Source: a virus (taxonomy: Duplodnaviria > Heunggongvirae > Uroviricota > Caudoviricetes). From it: a stretch of DNA of 5,451 nucleotides. The notes beneath the pieces are model-generated. The model worked only from the letters and a program-made list of their open reading frames with translations, ran no database searches and was not told where the DNA came from. The stretch lies in IMG/VR virus record IMGVR_UViG_2541047751_000012, one strand, 5' to 3'. The translations under genes and the position numbers were made by a program. Shown here piece by piece: positions 1,774 through 5,451 of the stretch. Position 1 is the first letter of the stretch, and each line of letters begins with the position of its first letter.

Positions 1774-2058
1774 TTATTCAGTGCCGATATTTACCTTTAT
1801 CGCGTATACCTTTACCGGTTTATCACCGAAGTGCGGATGTGTGATTGTCTTCACTTCATATCCGTCATACGGAACATCAACTCTGCGGCTGGAATCGTCG
1901 CGCTTCGGATATCCCTTTGTGATAATCAGGCGGTCATGCTTACGGTTAACGAGGCGCTTTTTCCAGTAGTCATTACACAGGCGATACTCTTCCGTTTTCT
2001 CTCCGCGAATCATGGCATCGAAGTATTCACCTTTAACGGCAAGTTGCAGGTTAGCCAC
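1774..2058 (-). CDS. Small protein with an ASCH/PUA-like (DUF3850-like) N-terminal signature, 94 aa if started at the GTG
   Basis: The six-frame ORF extends to 2142 but would overlap the upstream gene by about 90 nt. An in-frame GTG at 2058-2056 is preceded by a perfect AAGGAG with 6-nt spacing and overlaps the upstream stop by 8 nt. The segment EYFDAMIRGEKTEEYRLCNDYW fits the ASCH-like pattern (xYFxAvxxGxKxxExR) as I remember it. Confidence 0.55.
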   Translation of the reverse strand: MANLQLAVKGEYFDAMIRGEKTEEYRLCNDYWKKRLVNRKHDRLIITKGYPKRDDSSRRVDVPYDGYEVKTITHPHFGDKPVKVYAIKVNIGTE

Positions 2059-2791
2059 GGTTAACTCCTTGCTGTGTGGCGTCGAGTAATAAATCCCACA
2101 ACCGCTGAGAGCAATTTCCGCATGTACAGCGTTGACCCACAACGTTTATCGCGTTGCTGATTTCCGGCGTTACCTGTTTAGGAACCATAACCCAACCATC
2201 CGGAGTTACCGGAAGCGAGAACGGCAGCACATCTCTGTGAACAAGTTTTTGCTGTGACAGGTTATCCAGAACTTTCTGTACTGCTGCATCACCGAATACA
2301 CCAAGCGCATCTGCCATAACTCCTACAACCTGATAAGCCTCAGCGCATACCGTGGATAAACCATCCGGAATTACCGGAGAGTTGCCGGGTTCTTTAATGT
2401 GCAAGCGAGGCTCACCATCTTTTGGCTCAGGCCACTGGCGCTCCATGTTGATCTTCAATTTATCTTCCATAGCAACGGTAATTTCAGCATCGCTGATGCC
2501 AGCACGGCGCTGTGCATCCCACAACAGAAACTGCATATCAGCCCACTCGCTAAGATCGTCTGGTTCGGCTGCGGCTTCCAGTGCCTCTTTTGAGAGGTGT
2601 TTCAGTGGACCAATGGGGCCAACGCAGCCAAATGTGGAGTCAGACCATTTGGCATGCTCGTGGCGAATCTGTTCGCGTTCCAGTGATGCCAGTGCAATTC
2701 GTGCTAGTTCCATTTGTTCGCCACGAGTAAGCCCGTTTTCAAGCGGATTTTTAATGAACAATTCAATACGTTCTTTGGTAATAGTGGTCAT
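2051..2791 (-). CDS. Modular prophage protein of unknown function, 246 aa; paralog of the 2999-3778 gene
   Basis: Long ORF with a GAGGA Shine-Dalgarno. Its ATG overlaps the stop of the upstream small gene (ATGA). It shares an N-terminal region (..ELARIALASLEREQ vs ..AYEIALASLEENP) and an NSPVIP motif with the 2999-3778 product. It also contains an internal repeat, PVIPDGL / PVTPDGW. Confidence 0.75.
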   Translation of the reverse strand: MTTITKERIELFIKNPLENGLTRGEQMELARIALASLEREQIRHEHAKWSDSTFGCVGPIGPLKHLSKEALEAAAEPDDLSEWADMQFLLWDAQRRAGISDAEITVAMEDKLKINMERQWPEPKDGEPRLHIKEPGNSPVIPDGLSTVCAEAYQVVGVMADALGVFGDAAVQKVLDNLSQQKLVHRDVLPFSLPVTPDGWVMVPKQVTPEISNAINVVGQRCTCGNCSQRLWDLLLDATQQGVNRG

Positions 2792-2997
2792 GTGTTAATC
2801 CTCAAAACTTTATGCCCGGGCGCAAAAGTACGTGTTTTGTCTTTGCTTATTCGCCACCCGTCTTTACGGGCCTCTTTTGCACAACCAGACCATGACGTAC
2901 CGATATACTCACCGAAGTCTGGCACTGGATATACACCTTCCGTACACTGGCGACAATCACAATAGAGATGCATGGTGTAACTTGCGGCAATAGCCAT
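2788..2997 (-). CDS. Small Cys-rich protein, 69 aa, putative zinc ribbon; function unknown
   Basis: The six-frame ORF reaches 3039, but that would overlap the upstream gene. The ATG at 2997-2995 lies 1 nt after the upstream stop with AAGAGAG just upstream. The product (MAIAASYTMHLYCDCRQC...SGC...) has a CxCxxC cluster plus one more Cys. Its stop overlaps the next gene's ATG (ATGA). Confidence 0.55.
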   Translation of the reverse strand: MAIAASYTMHLYCDCRQCTEGVYPVPDFGEYIGTSWSGCAKEARKDGWRISKDKTRTFAPGHKVLRINT

Positions 2998-2998
2998 A

Positions 2999-3778
2999 TC
3001 ACTCTCTTTTTCCCTGAAGCATGGCAGCGTGGCAGGCATCCTCTACGCCCTTAACTGCATCTGCGCAGTAGTTATAGCGATTGCATTCCACTAACTTCTG
3101 CCTGAGATTTTCAATTGCTTGCGCGACATCAGCCTGTATTACAGGAACTGGCGGAACGGCTGTCTGCTGCTCTCGAACGTCATTAGTCGCTATCGGTTCT
3201 GCTGCCAACTGACTGGCATATTTGTTAATGGTAACGATAAGCTCTTGCTCAGCCTCATCCAGACAATCACCGATACCTCGCCTGTCGCCGTCAAAATCAT
3301 CGAAATCAGCACGAACTCTGGCAAATTTCAGGATTGCGGACAACACCTCACCAGGAATTACCGGAGAGTTGGTTGACGTTTCCGAAATTTCCCGAAAATT
3401 ATTGGTTGACGAATTCGCGTTTTCCCGAAAGTTTCCGGCATGAAGCATAGCCGCGCGGCAGGCGTTCCAGCCTTCATCAAAACCGACTATGCCATTATTT
3501 AAAGTCGGACGAGCATCTGGCACCACCGGCACTGGCTTGGCTATATATAGCGGCTGAACATACCAACCCTTTGATAACCAACTGTCAGCAATGTTTTTAC
3601 TCCTCGTTATTGCCGGAATACCTAAGCCATTGTCTGAATGCAGCCATGCCACCGGATTCTCTTCCAGCGATGCCAGAGCAATTTCATAAGCCCGGCGCTC
3701 AACATTGTCTCGCACATCCAAACTGCTGATACGCTCTTTGATTTCTTTAATCAGTTCTTTGTCGGTAAAAGTGCTCAT
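2999..3778 (-). CDS. Modular prophage protein of unknown function, 259 aa; paralog of the 2051-2791 gene; contains an 11-aa tandem repeat
   Basis: The six-frame ORF starts at 3799, but the ATG at 3778-3776 (MSTFTDKELIK...) has a GGAGA Shine-Dalgarno at about 6 nt and sits 1 nt after the Ea22-like stop. It shares the N-terminal helix and the NSPVIP motif with the 2051-2791 product, with an 18-nt identical DNA core. It carries the internal repeat NFRENANSSTN / NFREISETSTN. Confidence 0.75.
   Translation of the reverse strand: MSTFTDKELIKEIKERISSLDVRDNVERRAYEIALASLEENPVAWLHSDNGLGIPAITRSKNIADSWLSKGWYVQPLYIAKPVPVVPDARPTLNNGIVGFDEGWNACRAAMLHAGNFRENANSSTNNFREISETSTNSPVIPGEVLSAILKFARVRADFDDFDGDRRGIGDCLDEAEQELIVTINKYASQLAAEPIATNDVREQQTAVPPVPVIQADVAQAIENLRQKLVECNRYNYCADAVKGVEDACHAAMLQGKRE
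3369..3434 (-). repeat. Two-copy imperfect 33-bp tandem repeat inside the 2999-3778 CDS
   Basis: ttggttgacgtttccgaaatttcccgaaaatta versus ttggttgacgaattcgcgttttcccgaaagttt, about 24/33 identical and in frame (11 codons each), encoding NFRENANSSTN / NFREISETSTN on the minus strand. Confidence 0.7.
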
Positions 3779-3779
3779 A

Positions 3780-4544
3780 TCAATCTCCATTGGTATCAAT
3801 GTTTACAGCCTGACAAGACTCTTTGAGCACCCAGTCAATAGCGTCTTTCCATGCCTCTGTTTCGACTGGTGGATTTTCACGCTTAACCTGTTCATAGAAG
3901 CGCACTGCTTTAACCAGTCCTTCCGGTACTACTGGTGATGGCTGTTTAGCTTCTAAATCAGCAATTCTGTCAACCACGGCATCGACAGCATCTGAAAAGC
4001 CGAACCAGTTGCTCCACTCCGGCTCATCCCCGGTTGCTGCAAAGTACATATCTGCTAAAGCAGATTCAGCATGGTCACGCTCGTTAATGAGTTGCTCTTC
4101 GCTTTTCTCCAGTTCAGCAATACGCTTACCCCCATCCGAGATAACACCTTCGTAATACTCACGCTGCTCGTTGAGTTTTGATTTTGTCTCCTCAAGCTCA
4201 ACTCTCAGCTTCCCAACAGTAAGAGCAATATCCTCGTTCTCCTGGTCGCGGCGTTTTATGTATTGCTGGTTTCTTTCCCGTTCATCCAGCAGTGCCAGCA
4301 CAGTAGCCGGATTGGCTGCGGCGATGAATTCAGCATTGGCCTGCTGTTCCATTTGGAAATCTTCATCGAAACCGCTTTCTGGATGCGCTCCTTCAATTCT
4401 GCAAATGGGAATATATCCAGCAACTTCACGATGAATTAGCGCATAATCACCATCAAATCGGCTCTCTCCATATTCGAGCGACCACTCACCACACGTTGCT
4501 TTTTCTGCCGCTTCACGCAGTGCCTGATAGTTAATTTCGCTCAC
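3780..4544 (-). CDS. Ead/Ea22-like coiled-coil protein, 254 aa
   Basis: Long ORF whose N-terminus (MSEINYQALREAAEKATCGEWS) matches my recollection of Ea22-like prophage proteins, with a central charged, coiled-coil-like region (ELEETKSKLNEQREYYE...ELEKSEEQL). The start codon is GTG (4544-4542), overlapping the upstream TraR-like stop (GTGA), with GAGAGG upstream. Confidence 0.8.
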   Translation of the reverse strand: MSEINYQALREAAEKATCGEWSLEYGESRFDGDYALIHREVAGYIPICRIEGAHPESGFDEDFQMEQQANAEFIAAANPATVLALLDERERNQQYIKRRDQENEDIALTVGKLRVELEETKSKLNEQREYYEGVISDGGKRIAELEKSEEQLINERDHAESALADMYFAATGDEPEWSNWFGFSDAVDAVVDRIADLEAKQPSPVVPEGLVKAVRFYEQVKRENPPVETEAWKDAIDWVLKESCQAVNIDTNGD

Positions 4545-4762
4545 TTCGAACCTCTCTGTTTACTGATAAGCTCCAGATCCTCCTGGCAACTTGCACAAGT
4601 CCGACAACCCTGAACGACCAGGCGTCTTCGTTCATCTATGGGATCGCCACACTCACAACAATGAGTGGCGGATATAGTCTGGTAGTTCAGACGACGCATT
4701 TTTATTGCTGTATTGCGCTGTAATTCTTCAATTTCTGATGCTGAATCAATGATGTCCGCCAT
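4541..4762 (-). CDS. TraR/DksA-family C4 zinc-finger protein (lambda orf73-like), 73 aa
   Basis: The translation has the TraR-type motif C-x2-C-x14-C-x2-C (..CCECGDPIDERRRLVVQGCRTCASCQ..), which aligns by eye with F-plasmid TraR (..CEACGNPIPEARR...CVECQ..). The size and the position in the early-left region are consistent with lambda orf73. Confidence 0.85.
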   Translation of the reverse strand: MADIIDSASEIEELQRNTAIKMRRLNYQTISATHCCECGDPIDERRRLVVQGCRTCASCQEDLELISKQRGSK

Positions 4763-4810: not shown

Positions 4811-4845
4811 GAATAATAAAAAAGGAGCCTGTAGCTCCCTGATGA
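4811..4845 (-). terminator. Putative Rho-independent terminator on the minus strand
   Basis: On the minus strand: AGGGAGC-tacag-GCUCC(uu) hairpin (5 G/C-rich pairs plus possible G-U and A-U) followed directly by UUUUUUAUUAUU. On the plus strand the hairpin is preceded by an A-run instead, so it is orientation-specific to the operon direction. Located 16-50 nt after the stop of the 4861 gene. Confidence 0.5.
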
Positions 4846-4860
4846 TTTTGCTTTTCATGT

Positions 4861-5076
4861 TCACCGTTCCTTAAAGACGCCGTTTAACATGCCGATCGCC
4901 AGGCTTAAATGAGTCGGTGTGAATCCCATCAGCGTTACCGTTTCGCGGTGCTTCTTTAGTACGCTACGGCAAATGTCATCGACGTTTTTATCCGGAAACT
5001 GCTGTCTGGCTTTTTTGATTTCAGAATTAGCCTGACGGGCAATGCTGCGAAGGGCGTTTTCTTGCTGAGGTGTCAC
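4861..5076 (-). CDS. Hypothetical small phage protein; 71 aa if started at GTG 5076, or 93 aa if started at ATG 5142
   Basis: The ORF is clear from 4861; the start is ambiguous. The ATG at 5142 has no Shine-Dalgarno and gives a Cys-rich, odd-looking N-terminus (MHFSGSGLHILCAYACRHGACS). The GTG at 5076-5074 overlaps the stop of a 27-aa ORF (GTGA), matching the coupling pattern of the rest of the operon. The C-terminal 70 aa look like a normal soluble protein; I do not recognise the family. Confidence 0.5.
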   Translation of the reverse strand: MTPQQENALRSIARQANSEIKKARQQFPDKNVDDICRSVLKKHRETVTLMGFTPTHLSLAIGMLNGVFKER

Positions 5077-5156
5077 TGAACAAGCCCCATGTCGGCAAGC
5101 ATAAGCACACAGAATATGAAGCCCGCTGCCAGAAAAATGCATTCAGTGGTTGTCAT
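5073..5156 (-). CDS. Candidate 27-aa hydrophobic small protein (MTTTECIFLAAGFIFCVLMLADMGLVQ)
   Basis: Short ORF missing from the six-frame track. Its ATG (5156-5154) overlaps the TGA of the truncated upstream reading frame (ATGA) and its TGA overlaps the GTG of the next gene (GTGA). The product is dominated by one hydrophobic stretch of transmembrane length. No strong Shine-Dalgarno (GAGAGA at about 6-7 nt). Confidence 0.25.
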   Translation of the reverse strand: MTTTECIFLAAGFIFCVLMLADMGLVQ

Positions 5157-5241
5157 ACCTGGTCTCTCTCATCTGCTTCTGCTTTCGCCACCATCATTTC
5201 CAGCTTTTGTGAAAGGGATGTGGCTAACGTATGAAATTCTT
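5153..5241 (-). pseudogene. 3' remnant (about 28 codons) of a minus-strand phage gene, apparently truncated by the IS insertion
   Basis: An open frame (..EFHTLATSLSQKLEMMVAKAEADERDQV*) runs from the IS boundary to a TGA at 5155-5153, with no start codon context at its 5' end. That end abuts the IS left terminus at about 5242. The identity of the disrupted gene is unknown. Confidence 0.3.
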
Positions 5242-5451
5242 TGAACCGCCCCGGGAATCCTGGAGACTAAACTTCCTGAGAAAGAGGTAAACAGGATGAC
5301 TAAAAATACTCGTTTTTCCCCCGAAGTCCGTCAACGGGCAGTCCGTATGGTTCTGGAAAGTCAGAGCGAATATGACTCACAATGGGCGACAATTTGTTCC
5401 ATTGCTCCAAAGATTGGCTGTACGCCGGAGACTCTGCGTGTCTGGGTTCGC
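5242..5451 (+). mobile_element. IS3-family insertion sequence, left end (IS629/IS1203-like from memory); continues beyond the window
   Basis: A terminal sequence TGAACCGCCCCGGGAATCCTGGAGACTAAACTTCC begins at 5242, followed 54 nt later by an orfA-type gene. This matches my recollection of the IS629 left inverted repeat and leader. The change in gene orientation and content at this point is abrupt. Confidence 0.8.
5296..5451 (+). CDS. IS3-family transposase OrfA (helix-turn-helix), N-terminal 52 codons; partial at window end
   Basis: ATG at 5296 preceded by GAAAGAGG at about 8 nt. The translation [52 protein letters not shown] matches the IS629-type OrfA N-terminus as I recall it. Open to the end of the window. 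Confidence 0.85.

Follow-up and report, generated by a model that had tools for sequence, protein, structure and literature searches.

Three overlapping genes in the exo-xis region of a phage-21-like Escherichia coli prophage: probably hypermosaic accessory DNA without a dedicated three-gene system

Position and proposed expression of the three genes

Three overlapping genes of a lambdoid prophage, encoding two large proteins on either side of a small Cys-rich protein, raise the question of whether they form a functional unit or merely share an address. We call them, from upstream to downstream, geneA, geneB and geneC, and the window is the whole stretch of 5,451 nucleotides that was analyzed. 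Its relevant features are:

4822..4840 (minus): terminator-like hairpin and T-run just upstream of traR (consensus scan only)
4541..4762 (minus): TraR/DksA-type C4 zinc-finger protein, equivalent of lambda Orf73 (PF01258, E 8e-9; TIGR02419; phrog_54)
3780..4544 (minus): Ead/Ea22-like protein (PF13935, E 4e-40)
2999..3778 (minus): geneA, 259 aa, short EaA/DUF551-family mosaic protein lacking DUF551 (family comparison)
2989..3010 (minus): geneB 5' boundary joint, AAAAGAGAGTGAT followed by ATGGCTATT; consensus AAAGGAGAGTGAT followed by ATGGCT
2788..2997 (minus): geneB, 69 aa, small phage protein of phrog_926 (profile match, E 3.6e-36)
2777..2805 (minus): geneB 3' boundary joint, TTGAGGATTAACACATGACCACTATTACC
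2051..2791 (minus): geneC, 246 aa, EaA-type mosaic protein (PF04447, E 8e-42; PHROG matches; alignment A3; comparison with MazZ)
1774..2058 (minus): ASCH-domain protein with GTG start (phrog_625)

The region is the exo-xis (“ea”) segment of an icd-integrated, phage-21-like lambdoid prophage of UPEC E. coli (CFT073, clone D; phage ev017). Near-identical counterparts adjoin icd in CFT073, clone D, and KE51 and also occur in ev017 and PhiR57_1, both deposited as phage genome records; they are flanked by exo/bet/gam on one side and by xis/int on the other. The first-pass annotation of this DNA had thus correctly recognized a pL-side accessory position between xis and the recombination genes, the ea22-like and traR-like genes upstream, and the general character of the region, i.e., modular proteins of uncharacterized function. 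The source for Orf73/TraR is PMC9239242; for Ea22 a pro-lysogenic phenotype has been reported. The Ea22-like protein has an SPVVPEG linker (3924-3935) preceding its C-terminal module, and sequence and profile searches with it yielded nothing significant in the PDB. An IS3-family element breaks DUF1382 at about 5242, CFT073 carries an additional IS21 insertion, and many neighboring fragments are flagged as pseudogenes by PGAP. Within the window there was no Rfam match, no repeat (Tandem Repeats Finder) and no excess of promoter-like sites (consensus scan); the exo-xis region goes unmentioned in the co-transfer paper PMC9836094.

The three open reading frames described previously (2051-2791, 2788-2997 and 2999-3778) are all present on the minus strand, with ATG starts at 2997 for geneB and at 3778 for geneA, and so are the stop/start overlaps between them (ATGA at 2788-2791 and TGA-T-ATG at 2995-3001). 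Translational coupling as a property of this trio, however, did not hold, since the neighbors overlap in the same way: traR/ea22 by GTGA at 4541-4544, ea22/geneA by TGATATG at 3776-3782, and geneC/ASCH at 2051-2058 (GTGGCTAA), where the GTG start of the ASCH gene overlaps the geneC stop, so that coupling runs on beyond the trio and spans six genes, from traR through ASCH. By its likeness to the lambda tL terminators, the hairpin upstream of traR may act as a terminator, in which case the genes downstream would need antiterminated pL transcription. If the analogy with lambda holds, delayed-early transcription from pL would pass through this hairpin and would be followed by stop/start-coupled translation of traR, ea22, geneA, geneB, geneC and ASCH, onward to xis and int.

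Modules and relatives of the three proteins

None of the three proteins could be placed in a characterized family by the first-pass annotation, which regarded the two large ones as paralogs with a common N-terminal segment. Profile searches now assign geneC to PF04447 and geneB to phrog_926, while geneA remained without a Pfam, NCBIfam, or PDB match. The two large genes are composed as follows, in the direction of translation:

geneA (minus)
3662-3778: N-module, ending in the IALASLE joint (3662-3683)
about 3530-3661: small beta-type module
3518-3529: PVPVVP linker
3474-3515: variable patch
3441-3473: GWNACRAAML joint
3369-3433: two NFRE..STN repeats
3353-3370: NSPVIP linker
3038-3352: C-terminal helical module, with a PPVP linker inside (3143-3154)
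3015-3037: CHAAMLQG joint, the protein end

geneC (minus)
2678-2791: N-module, with the IALASLE joint at 2678-2699
2381-2668: DUF550 (PF04447) domain
2366-2383: NSPVIP linker
2213-2365: middle helical module
2195-2212: PVTPDG linker
2054-2194: unusual 54-aa C-terminal module with CTCGNC, replacing the usual DUF551

Both are P22 EaA-type “beads-on-a-string” proteins. In this family, variable modules alternate with short conserved joints in the order MTTxT start, IALASLE(A)EP, PLY..PVPVVP, GWNACRAAML, NSPVIP, PVTPDGW, CHAAMLQG, and QEVNRG end, and members vary from module to module between the joints that they share. The NSPVIP motif noted previously in both proteins is indeed present, at residues 137-142 of each. 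The proposed paralogy was rejected, as BLASTP of geneA against geneC gave a best E of 0.22 and hhalign of the two N-modules aligned only the 10 columns of IALASLE. As far as their sequences go, geneA and geneC have only short junction motifs in common (MTTxT, IALASLE, NSPVIP). At the DNA level, the shared motifs greatly exceed chance, with 22-23-nt matches of 91% identity (expected number 2e-5 to 4e-4; 0 of 200 shuffles).

The PF04447 match of geneC scores 141.8 bits, the gathering cut-off being 23, and aligns residues 42-137 with profile positions 1-96 of 97. The protein is annotated as “EaA” or “DUF550 protein”, “EaA” being the name used for these genes in phage records. Its relatives mostly combine DUF550 with DUF551, and many E. 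coli prophage proteins match its DUF550 core at 98-100% identity. Residues 42-200 do not vary in alignment A3, where the swapped parts are the N-module (three types, that of geneA occurring in P0309) and the module that follows PVTPDGW. Neither the PDB, searched by sequence and profile, nor NCBIfam contained a match to geneC. Its AF2 model has a mean pLDDT of 40, too low for a fold search, because the alignment is shallow; the predicted helices would be compatible with an all-alpha MazG-like fold.

The family of geneA comprises more than 7,000 sequence clusters, mostly of proteins of 390-400 aa with a C-terminal DUF551 (PF04448), with which geneA is 72-93% identical over its full length and has the N-terminal slot MTTxT...IALASLE and the Pro-rich joints in common. 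It gave no PF04448 match in Pfam, stopping at CHAAMLQG where its relatives run on into DUF551. The sole exact match to geneA is G770_01276 of E. coli HVH 109; in all complete genomes with the same prophage the gene is split by a 1-nt deletion, and from these otherwise 99.9% identical prophages the window differs solely in the patch between the PVPVVP and GWNACRAAML joints. GeneA carries no catalytic signature and, being broken in nearly every carrier, would be dispensable for the prophage.

GeneB matches phrog_926 with its residues 1-68 on profile positions 1-68 of 69, and the CxCxxC motif reported for it was recovered as CDCRQC. The family (302 cluster representatives; 45 close clusters) has the consensus LYCDCxxC...ARKxGWxISxD...CxAPGH. 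C13 is invariant, C15, C18, and H62 are kept among close homologs, C40 is variable, and the consensus Cys at position 57 is Thr in the window. C13, C15, C18, and H62 are the probable Zn site, and geneB may be a small Zn-stabilized binding protein. Its AF2 model has a pLDDT of 81; neither its fold nor its sequence found a match in the PDB, NCBIfam gave none, and a Pfam search with 42 relatives returned only noise. Besides the ea region, geneB occurs in nin regions, a P2-like prophage, and P1-like plasmids, and phrog_926 is a widespread yet unstudied family.

Joints, distribution and competing explanations

Homology breakpoints sit at the joints. In a comparison with 97 related loci, joint zones defined in advance and covering 22% of the sequence contained 55% of 333 distinct homology endpoints. 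The significance of this 2.5-fold enrichment is overstated, since the endpoints are not phylogenetically independent. GeneB is likewise a self-contained cassette with conserved boundary sequences. Its 5' joint includes the Shine-Dalgarno sequence, the stop of the upstream gene, and the start codon, and is kept across at least six unrelated families of upstream genes in a neighbor set of 98 sources (85 fetched loci, 13 further ones and the window); its 3' joint consists of the last geneB codons, the ATGA overlap, and the first five codons (MTTIT) of the EaA-type gene. Published work suggests that homologous recombination among co-resident prophages and infecting phages, at joints of 15-30 nt, would swap modules as well as whole small genes, the likely agents being Red-beta/Rad52-type recombinases with their tolerance for short, diverged homology. 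The window is one combination out of thousands, and this module shuffling leads annotation pipelines to mis-call such genes as pseudogenes or to misname them.

How far the three genes travel together was assessed in 5,426 complete E. coli genomes. The contiguous trio occurs in 88, all with the same prophage, compared with 666 for geneB, 512 for the DUF550 allele of geneC, and 798 for the C-terminal module of geneA. A single functional unit, e.g., for exclusion or anti-defence with the Cys-rich protein working with both flanking “paralogs”, had been proposed; the genes do lie side by side in one orientation, with stop/start overlaps between them, and the region is known to carry host-interaction genes. 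However, the trio is found in a single prophage lineage only and is not conserved as a unit across prophages, and geneA is frameshifted in every complete genome with this prophage. The unit also fails on the two grounds for refutation that the first-pass annotation had named: its parts occur independently, in some 500-800 genomes each, and geneC has a confident match to a named family (DUF550). The arrangement of the window recurs in 4 of the 85 fetched geneB loci (5 genomic, 80 viral), and in the fuller set 6 of the 97 loci other than the window have a geneA-type gene upstream of geneB, each time as its split allele. Together with the lack of paralogy, coupling that reaches the neighboring genes, and the absence of any defence-system match by PADLOC among seven proteins of the region, this makes a three-gene unit extremely improbable. 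Decay is a different matter: geneA, and possibly parts of geneC, may be recombination by-products or decaying fragments that are neutral in a degrading prophage. The 1-nt deletion in geneA, the IS3-family and IS21 insertions, the many PGAP pseudogene flags nearby, and the missing DUF551 end in both large proteins are all in line with this, but many genomes carry an unchanged DUF550 core, conservation of geneB is high and includes residues invariant throughout its family, the phage records of ev017 and PhiR57_1 have the same region, and some pseudogene calls are artefacts, PGAP annotating geneC as split although it is intact. We regard such decay as possible though, on balance, rather unlikely. 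Most probably, the three genes represent one stretch of hypermosaic accessory DNA from the early-left (exo-xis) region of a phage-21-like prophage, with no dedicated three-gene system. The value of this outcome is chiefly that of a clean negative and the locus is, overall, ordinary.

A narrower association is that of geneB with the gene that follows it: of 96 informative loci, about 86 have at this place a gene that overlaps geneB by ATGA and starts with an EaA-type N-module. At least five N-module types and many bodies, with or without DUF550, are represented. GeneB might therefore have the EaA-type protein as its functional partner, serving it as regulator, chaperone, or co-factor, with the N-terminal slot as the interface and the C-terminal modules (DUF550, DUF551, and others) as exchangeable effectors. 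A P2-like prophage of Salmonella preserves the pairing, as does Kosakonia at 63% identity. However, EaA-type genes form more than 7,000 clusters compared with the 45 close geneB clusters and do not, therefore, need geneB; four of five distant geneB homologs (Atlantibacter, Dryocola, Buttiauxella, Pantoea) and O157-type loci have unrelated genes downstream; and the sampled loci are closely related (geneB at least 94% identical). Moreover, the adjacency would be automatic if the recombination joint spans the geneB 3' end and the EaA start codon. The near-constant adjacency could reflect function rather than a mere joint, but we consider a partnership of this kind unlikely, and that geneB and its EaA-type neighbor form a two-component module, whose slot and joints let temperate phages swap effectors against host defences, seems quite doubtful to us. 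If true, lambdoid, P2-like, and P1-like elements would carry in their early operons a host-takeover or anti-defence system that is modular and diversified by recombination. More speculatively, the DUF550 or the phrog_926 protein could itself prove to be a host-takeover or anti-defence factor.

Comparison with known systems

The DUF550 domain of geneC is also found in MazZ (DUF5664-DUF550), the dGTP/dATP pyrophosphohydrolase of the Z-genome phage SH-Ab 15497. The two proteins have PF04447 and four acidic residues in common: at 32-34% identity, E69, E82, D85, and D92 are identical and E72 aligns with a His. By analogy with MazG-type enzymes, these four residues would be metal ligands. The DUF550 domain of geneC may be an all-alpha MazG/MazZ-type (d)NTP pyrophosphohydrolase; from dGTP/dATP or related nucleotides it would produce the monophosphate and PPi, tuning nucleotide pools early after induction. 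The activity of MazZ need not be that of DUF550 itself, since DUF550 is fused there to DUF5664, which is an active dNTP pyrophosphohydrolase in its own right (PMC12884076). In MazZ, this N-terminal DUF5664 (PF18909) is accompanied by linkage to purZ/datZ, whereas geneC lacks PF18909 and no PurZ- or DatZ-like neighbor was found, either within the window or in the 13 kb that surround it in ev017. A role of geneC in the Z-genome (2-aminoadenine) pathway was rejected for want of DUF5664, PurZ, and DatZ, and the host phage genome is presumably a normal, A-containing one. The DUF550 family takes its present name from a Z-genome enzyme and is common in lambdoid prophages of the ordinary kind. Literature on the functions of EaA, lambdoid DUF550, and DUF551 yielded only remarks on portable domains and phenotypes of yfdS/yfdT.

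The order of the region, i.e., traR/orf73, ea22, variable genes, xis, and int, is that of the exo-xis segment in lambda and Stx phages (PMC7093339), lambda having ea8.5 at the place of the geneA-geneB-geneC-ASCH-DUF4222 stretch. The EaA and DUF550-DUF551 proteins of lambdoid and P22-like phages have the same N-terminal slot (MTTxT...IALASLE), Pro-rich linkers, and early-left position; geneA and geneC differ from them in lacking DUF551, geneC ending in the rare CTCGNC module instead. GeneB agrees end to end with PHROG 926, to which wider membership, the Cys/His pattern, and the genomic contexts are added here.

The mosaicism of Ea22 with its “portable domains”, and DUF551 as a portable module, have already been described (PMC10834534). 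More generally, temperate phages undergo relaxed homologous recombination by Rad52-like recombinases, in which exchange of small intragenic fragments is more frequent than that of whole modules (De Paepe et al., 2014; PMC3945230). As in our loci, the exchanged segments in that study have short, partly conserved flanks, and intragenic exchanges of a few hundred bp take place among lambdoid prophages and even P1/P2-type elements. We did not find frame-keeping joints in EaA-type genes spelled out in the literature searched. The joints described here differ from those of De Paepe et al. in that they coincide with protein linkers and with gene starts and stops, so that exchanges preserve the reading frames, and the region provides a very clear case of in-frame module shuffling at conserved joints.

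Gene content and position of the region

Every sizeable ORF found in our ORF analysis of the window lies on the minus strand.

Features of the window, in the direction of transcription
5242-5451: IS3-family element at the right end of the window (inverted-repeat end at ~5242, transposase ATG at 5296)
5153-5242: leftover fragment of a DUF1382 gene interrupted by this element
4861-5142, minus: 93-aa ORF, phrog_303 (72 aa in the PGAP version)
4840-4822, minus: terminator-like hairpin (8-bp stem and T-run) between the 93-aa ORF and traR
4541-4762, minus: TraR/DksA zinc-finger gene (traR)
3780-4544, minus: Ead/Ea22-like gene (ea22)
2999-3778, minus: geneA, 259 aa
2788-2997, minus: geneB, 69 aa, small Cys-rich phage protein (phrog_926)
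2051-2791, minus: geneC, 246 aa
1774-2058, minus: ASCH-domain gene
1509-1748, minus: DUF4222 gene
1133-1369, minus: xis
1-1143, minus: int

The icd-adjacent prophage of UPEC/B2 strains (CFT073, clone D i2/i14, KE51, and others) is 99.8-100% identical at the DNA level, with aligned parts covering ~99% of the window, and the phage records ev017 and PhiR57_1, in which the region sits between exo/bet/gam and xis/int, are 99.9% identical. The region is lambda's ‘exo-xis’ region, called ‘ea’ in P22. CFT073 carries an extra IS21-like (ISEc10) insertion in it. No family scored above threshold in a Pfam search with the 93-aa ORF, and neither strand of the window yielded a known RNA family, a defence system or any further hidden feature. 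A plausible role for the hairpin at 4822-4840 is that of a terminator of the tL type, passed by transcription under N antitermination. By analogy with lambda biology, transcription would run from pL through this hairpin, upstream of traR, under antitermination, with translation coupled along the operon.

The three genes are not a unit

The first-pass annotation described geneA and geneC as paralogs flanking geneB in a translationally coupled cassette, a candidate for a functional unit. Much of the description is accurate: the coordinates of the trio, the ATGA overlap at 2788-2791, the TGA-T-ATG junction at 2995-3001, the CDCRQC motif of geneB, and the NSPVIP motif at residues 137-142 of both geneA and geneC were all recovered. 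As a whole, the observation is confirmed in part and its interpretation is partly supported. The coupling is not peculiar to the trio, as the same type of overlap occurs at traR/ea22 (GTGA), ea22/geneA (TGATATG, identical to the geneA/geneB junction), and geneC/ASCH (GTGGCTAA). GeneA and geneC are not paralogs: BLASTP gave no significant match between them (best E 0.22), and a profile-profile comparison of their N-terminal modules aligned ten residues around IALASLE and nothing more. The two genes share two collinear DNA stretches of 22-23 nt that are 91% identical (expected 2e-5 to 7e-5; none in 200 shuffles), and these short matches are not due to chance.

The trio is not a unit, and its parts occur independently. 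Of 5,426 complete E. coli genomes, 666 have the geneB core, 512 this DUF550 allele of geneC, and 798 the C-terminal module of geneA; the contiguous trio occurs in 88, always in the same prophage. The arrangement of the window recurs in 4 of the 85 geneB-encoding loci fetched (5 genome, 80 viral); when the set was enlarged to 98 sources (97 loci and the window), geneA precedes geneB in six besides the window, each with the split allele described below. Six or more unrelated families supply the gene upstream of geneB, among them several Ea22 variants, a 62-aa protein, and geneA-like proteins. Copies of geneB are found, too, in the nin region of Kosakonia and Pantoea lambdoid prophages (between a dnaB-type helicase and ninB/ninE), in a P2-like prophage of Salmonella (with replication/partition genes on one side and the portal gene on the other), and on P1-like plasmids.

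GeneB homologues outside ea regions (positions in the fetched loci)
L096 and L097, 4001-4231
L092, 4001-4192
L093, 4001-4195

Probable exchange of modules at short joints

Members of the EaA-type family (P22 EaA-like mosaic proteins) differ one module at a time between the same short motifs. The alignment of geneC shows no variation over residues 42-200 but swaps of both the N-module and the module following PVTPDGW, and the related protein P0309 combines the geneC body with a geneA-type N-module. Joint zones were set beforehand from gene boundaries, Pro-rich linkers (regular expression), and two repeated motifs (repeat search). Comparison of the window with 97 related loci gave 333 distinct homology endpoints, 55% of which fall in these zones, which make up 22% of the sequence; since the endpoints are non-independent, this enrichment gives qualitative support only. 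GeneB is bordered at each end by conserved DNA, beyond which its neighbors are wholly divergent. Its 5′ joint reads AAAGGAGAGTGAT followed directly by ATGGCT, which explains why the upstream proteins, though unrelated, end in KGE or KGD; its 3′ joint reads TTGAGGATTAACA(A/C)ATGACCACTATTACC.

Downstream, the gene directly 3′ of geneB has an EaA-type N-module and the ATGA overlap in ~86 of 96 informative loci. The N-modules there are of five or more types and the bodies are varied, and the pairing is kept in the P2-like prophage and in Kosakonia. The pairing could reflect function; it is also expected where a recombination joint spans the end of geneB and the start of the EaA-type gene. It is absent from four of the five distant geneB homologues, and EaA-type genes far outnumber geneB. 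A functional basis for the pairing seems unlikely to us.

GeneA was without a match in Pfam, NCBIfam or PDB. Most of its >7,000 relatives are 390-400 aa long and end in DUF551, running on past the CHAAMLQG motif at which geneA terminates. Its ORF is intact in the window but split by a 1-nt deletion in ev017 and in all complete genomes with this prophage, and E. coli HVH 109 is the only recorded source of exactly this 259-aa protein. The deletion adjoins a replaced patch (3474-3515) that lies between the motifs PVPVVP and GWNACRAAML; between these joints (window 3474-3545) the complete genomes have EEKPMPNPLSMYAVDAVAAIAEVR and the window DARPTLNNGIVGFDE, in prophages that are otherwise 99.9% identical. 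The patch resembles a tract of recent gene conversion. We speculate that geneA may carry modules without being catalytic and be dispensable, and that geneB may encode a Zn-stabilised binding protein. A 33-nt direct repeat in geneA (3369-3433; imperfect at 78% identity, below the Tandem Repeats Finder threshold) encodes NFRE..S(S/T)TN twice; relatives have one or two copies.

The DUF550 protein and comparison with known systems

Residues 42-137 of geneC match PF04447 strongly, with 141.8 bits (cut-off 23). This is DUF550, a family now called dATP/dGTP pyrophosphohydrolase; RefSeq names geneC a DUF550 protein and phage records an ‘EaA protein’. In most relatives an N-module, DUF550, a middle module, PVTPDGW, and DUF551 follow in that order, whereas geneC ends in a rare 54-aa module in place of DUF551. 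This module contains a CxCxxC motif (CTCGNC, residues 223-228; window 2107-2124) that recalls CDCRQC of geneB, and another variant of the slot (proteins P0047 and P0315) has a DnaJ-like CxxCxGxG-type motif. A terminator scan flagged a small palindrome, TCCGG-TAATT-CCGGA, in the DNA of the geneC NSPVIP linker (2364-2378, minus strand).

PGAP divided the intact geneC of strain KE51 (locus L001, 5051-5791, equal to window 2051-2791) into a 213-aa DUF550 protein and a ‘pseudogene’ N-terminal fragment, despite DNA identical to that of the window. This split is an annotation artefact caused by the mosaic nature of these proteins, and the same may hold for many of the ‘incomplete’ calls made there. 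Some public names of EaA-type/DUF550-DUF551 proteins (P0392, P0399, P0421; records H46, H121) are also misleading, e.g., ‘dTDP-6-deoxy-L-hexose 3-O-methyltransferase’ and ‘Valyl-tRNA synthetase’.

PF04447 owes its name to MazZ, a protein of the Acinetobacter Z-genome phage SH-Ab 15497 (PMC12884076). MazZ is a DUF5664-DUF550 fusion, whereas geneC lacks DUF5664, a domain that is an active dNTP pyrophosphohydrolase in its own right (PMC12884076). MazZ matches PF04447 with an E of only 5e-8; its identity to geneC is 32-34%, with E69, E82, D85, and D92 common to both. Given this distant relation and the four conserved acidic residues, it is reasonable to infer that geneC may be enzymatically active; by homology, it would hydrolyse dGTP/dATP-like nucleotides soon after induction, giving the monophosphate and pyrophosphate.

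Joint-bounded exchange is familiar from lambdoid mosaicism, in which Rad52-like recombinases drive recombination at short stretches of partial conservation and whole modules are exchanged less often than small intragenic fragments (PMC3945230). For the neighboring Ea22 genes a mosaic, portable-domain nature was published before (PMC10834534). The region, with one DUF550 member and one member of the small-protein family of geneB, is an ordinary but very clear case of something known, the accessory region that lambdoid prophages carry, mosaic and of the EaA/Ea22 type.
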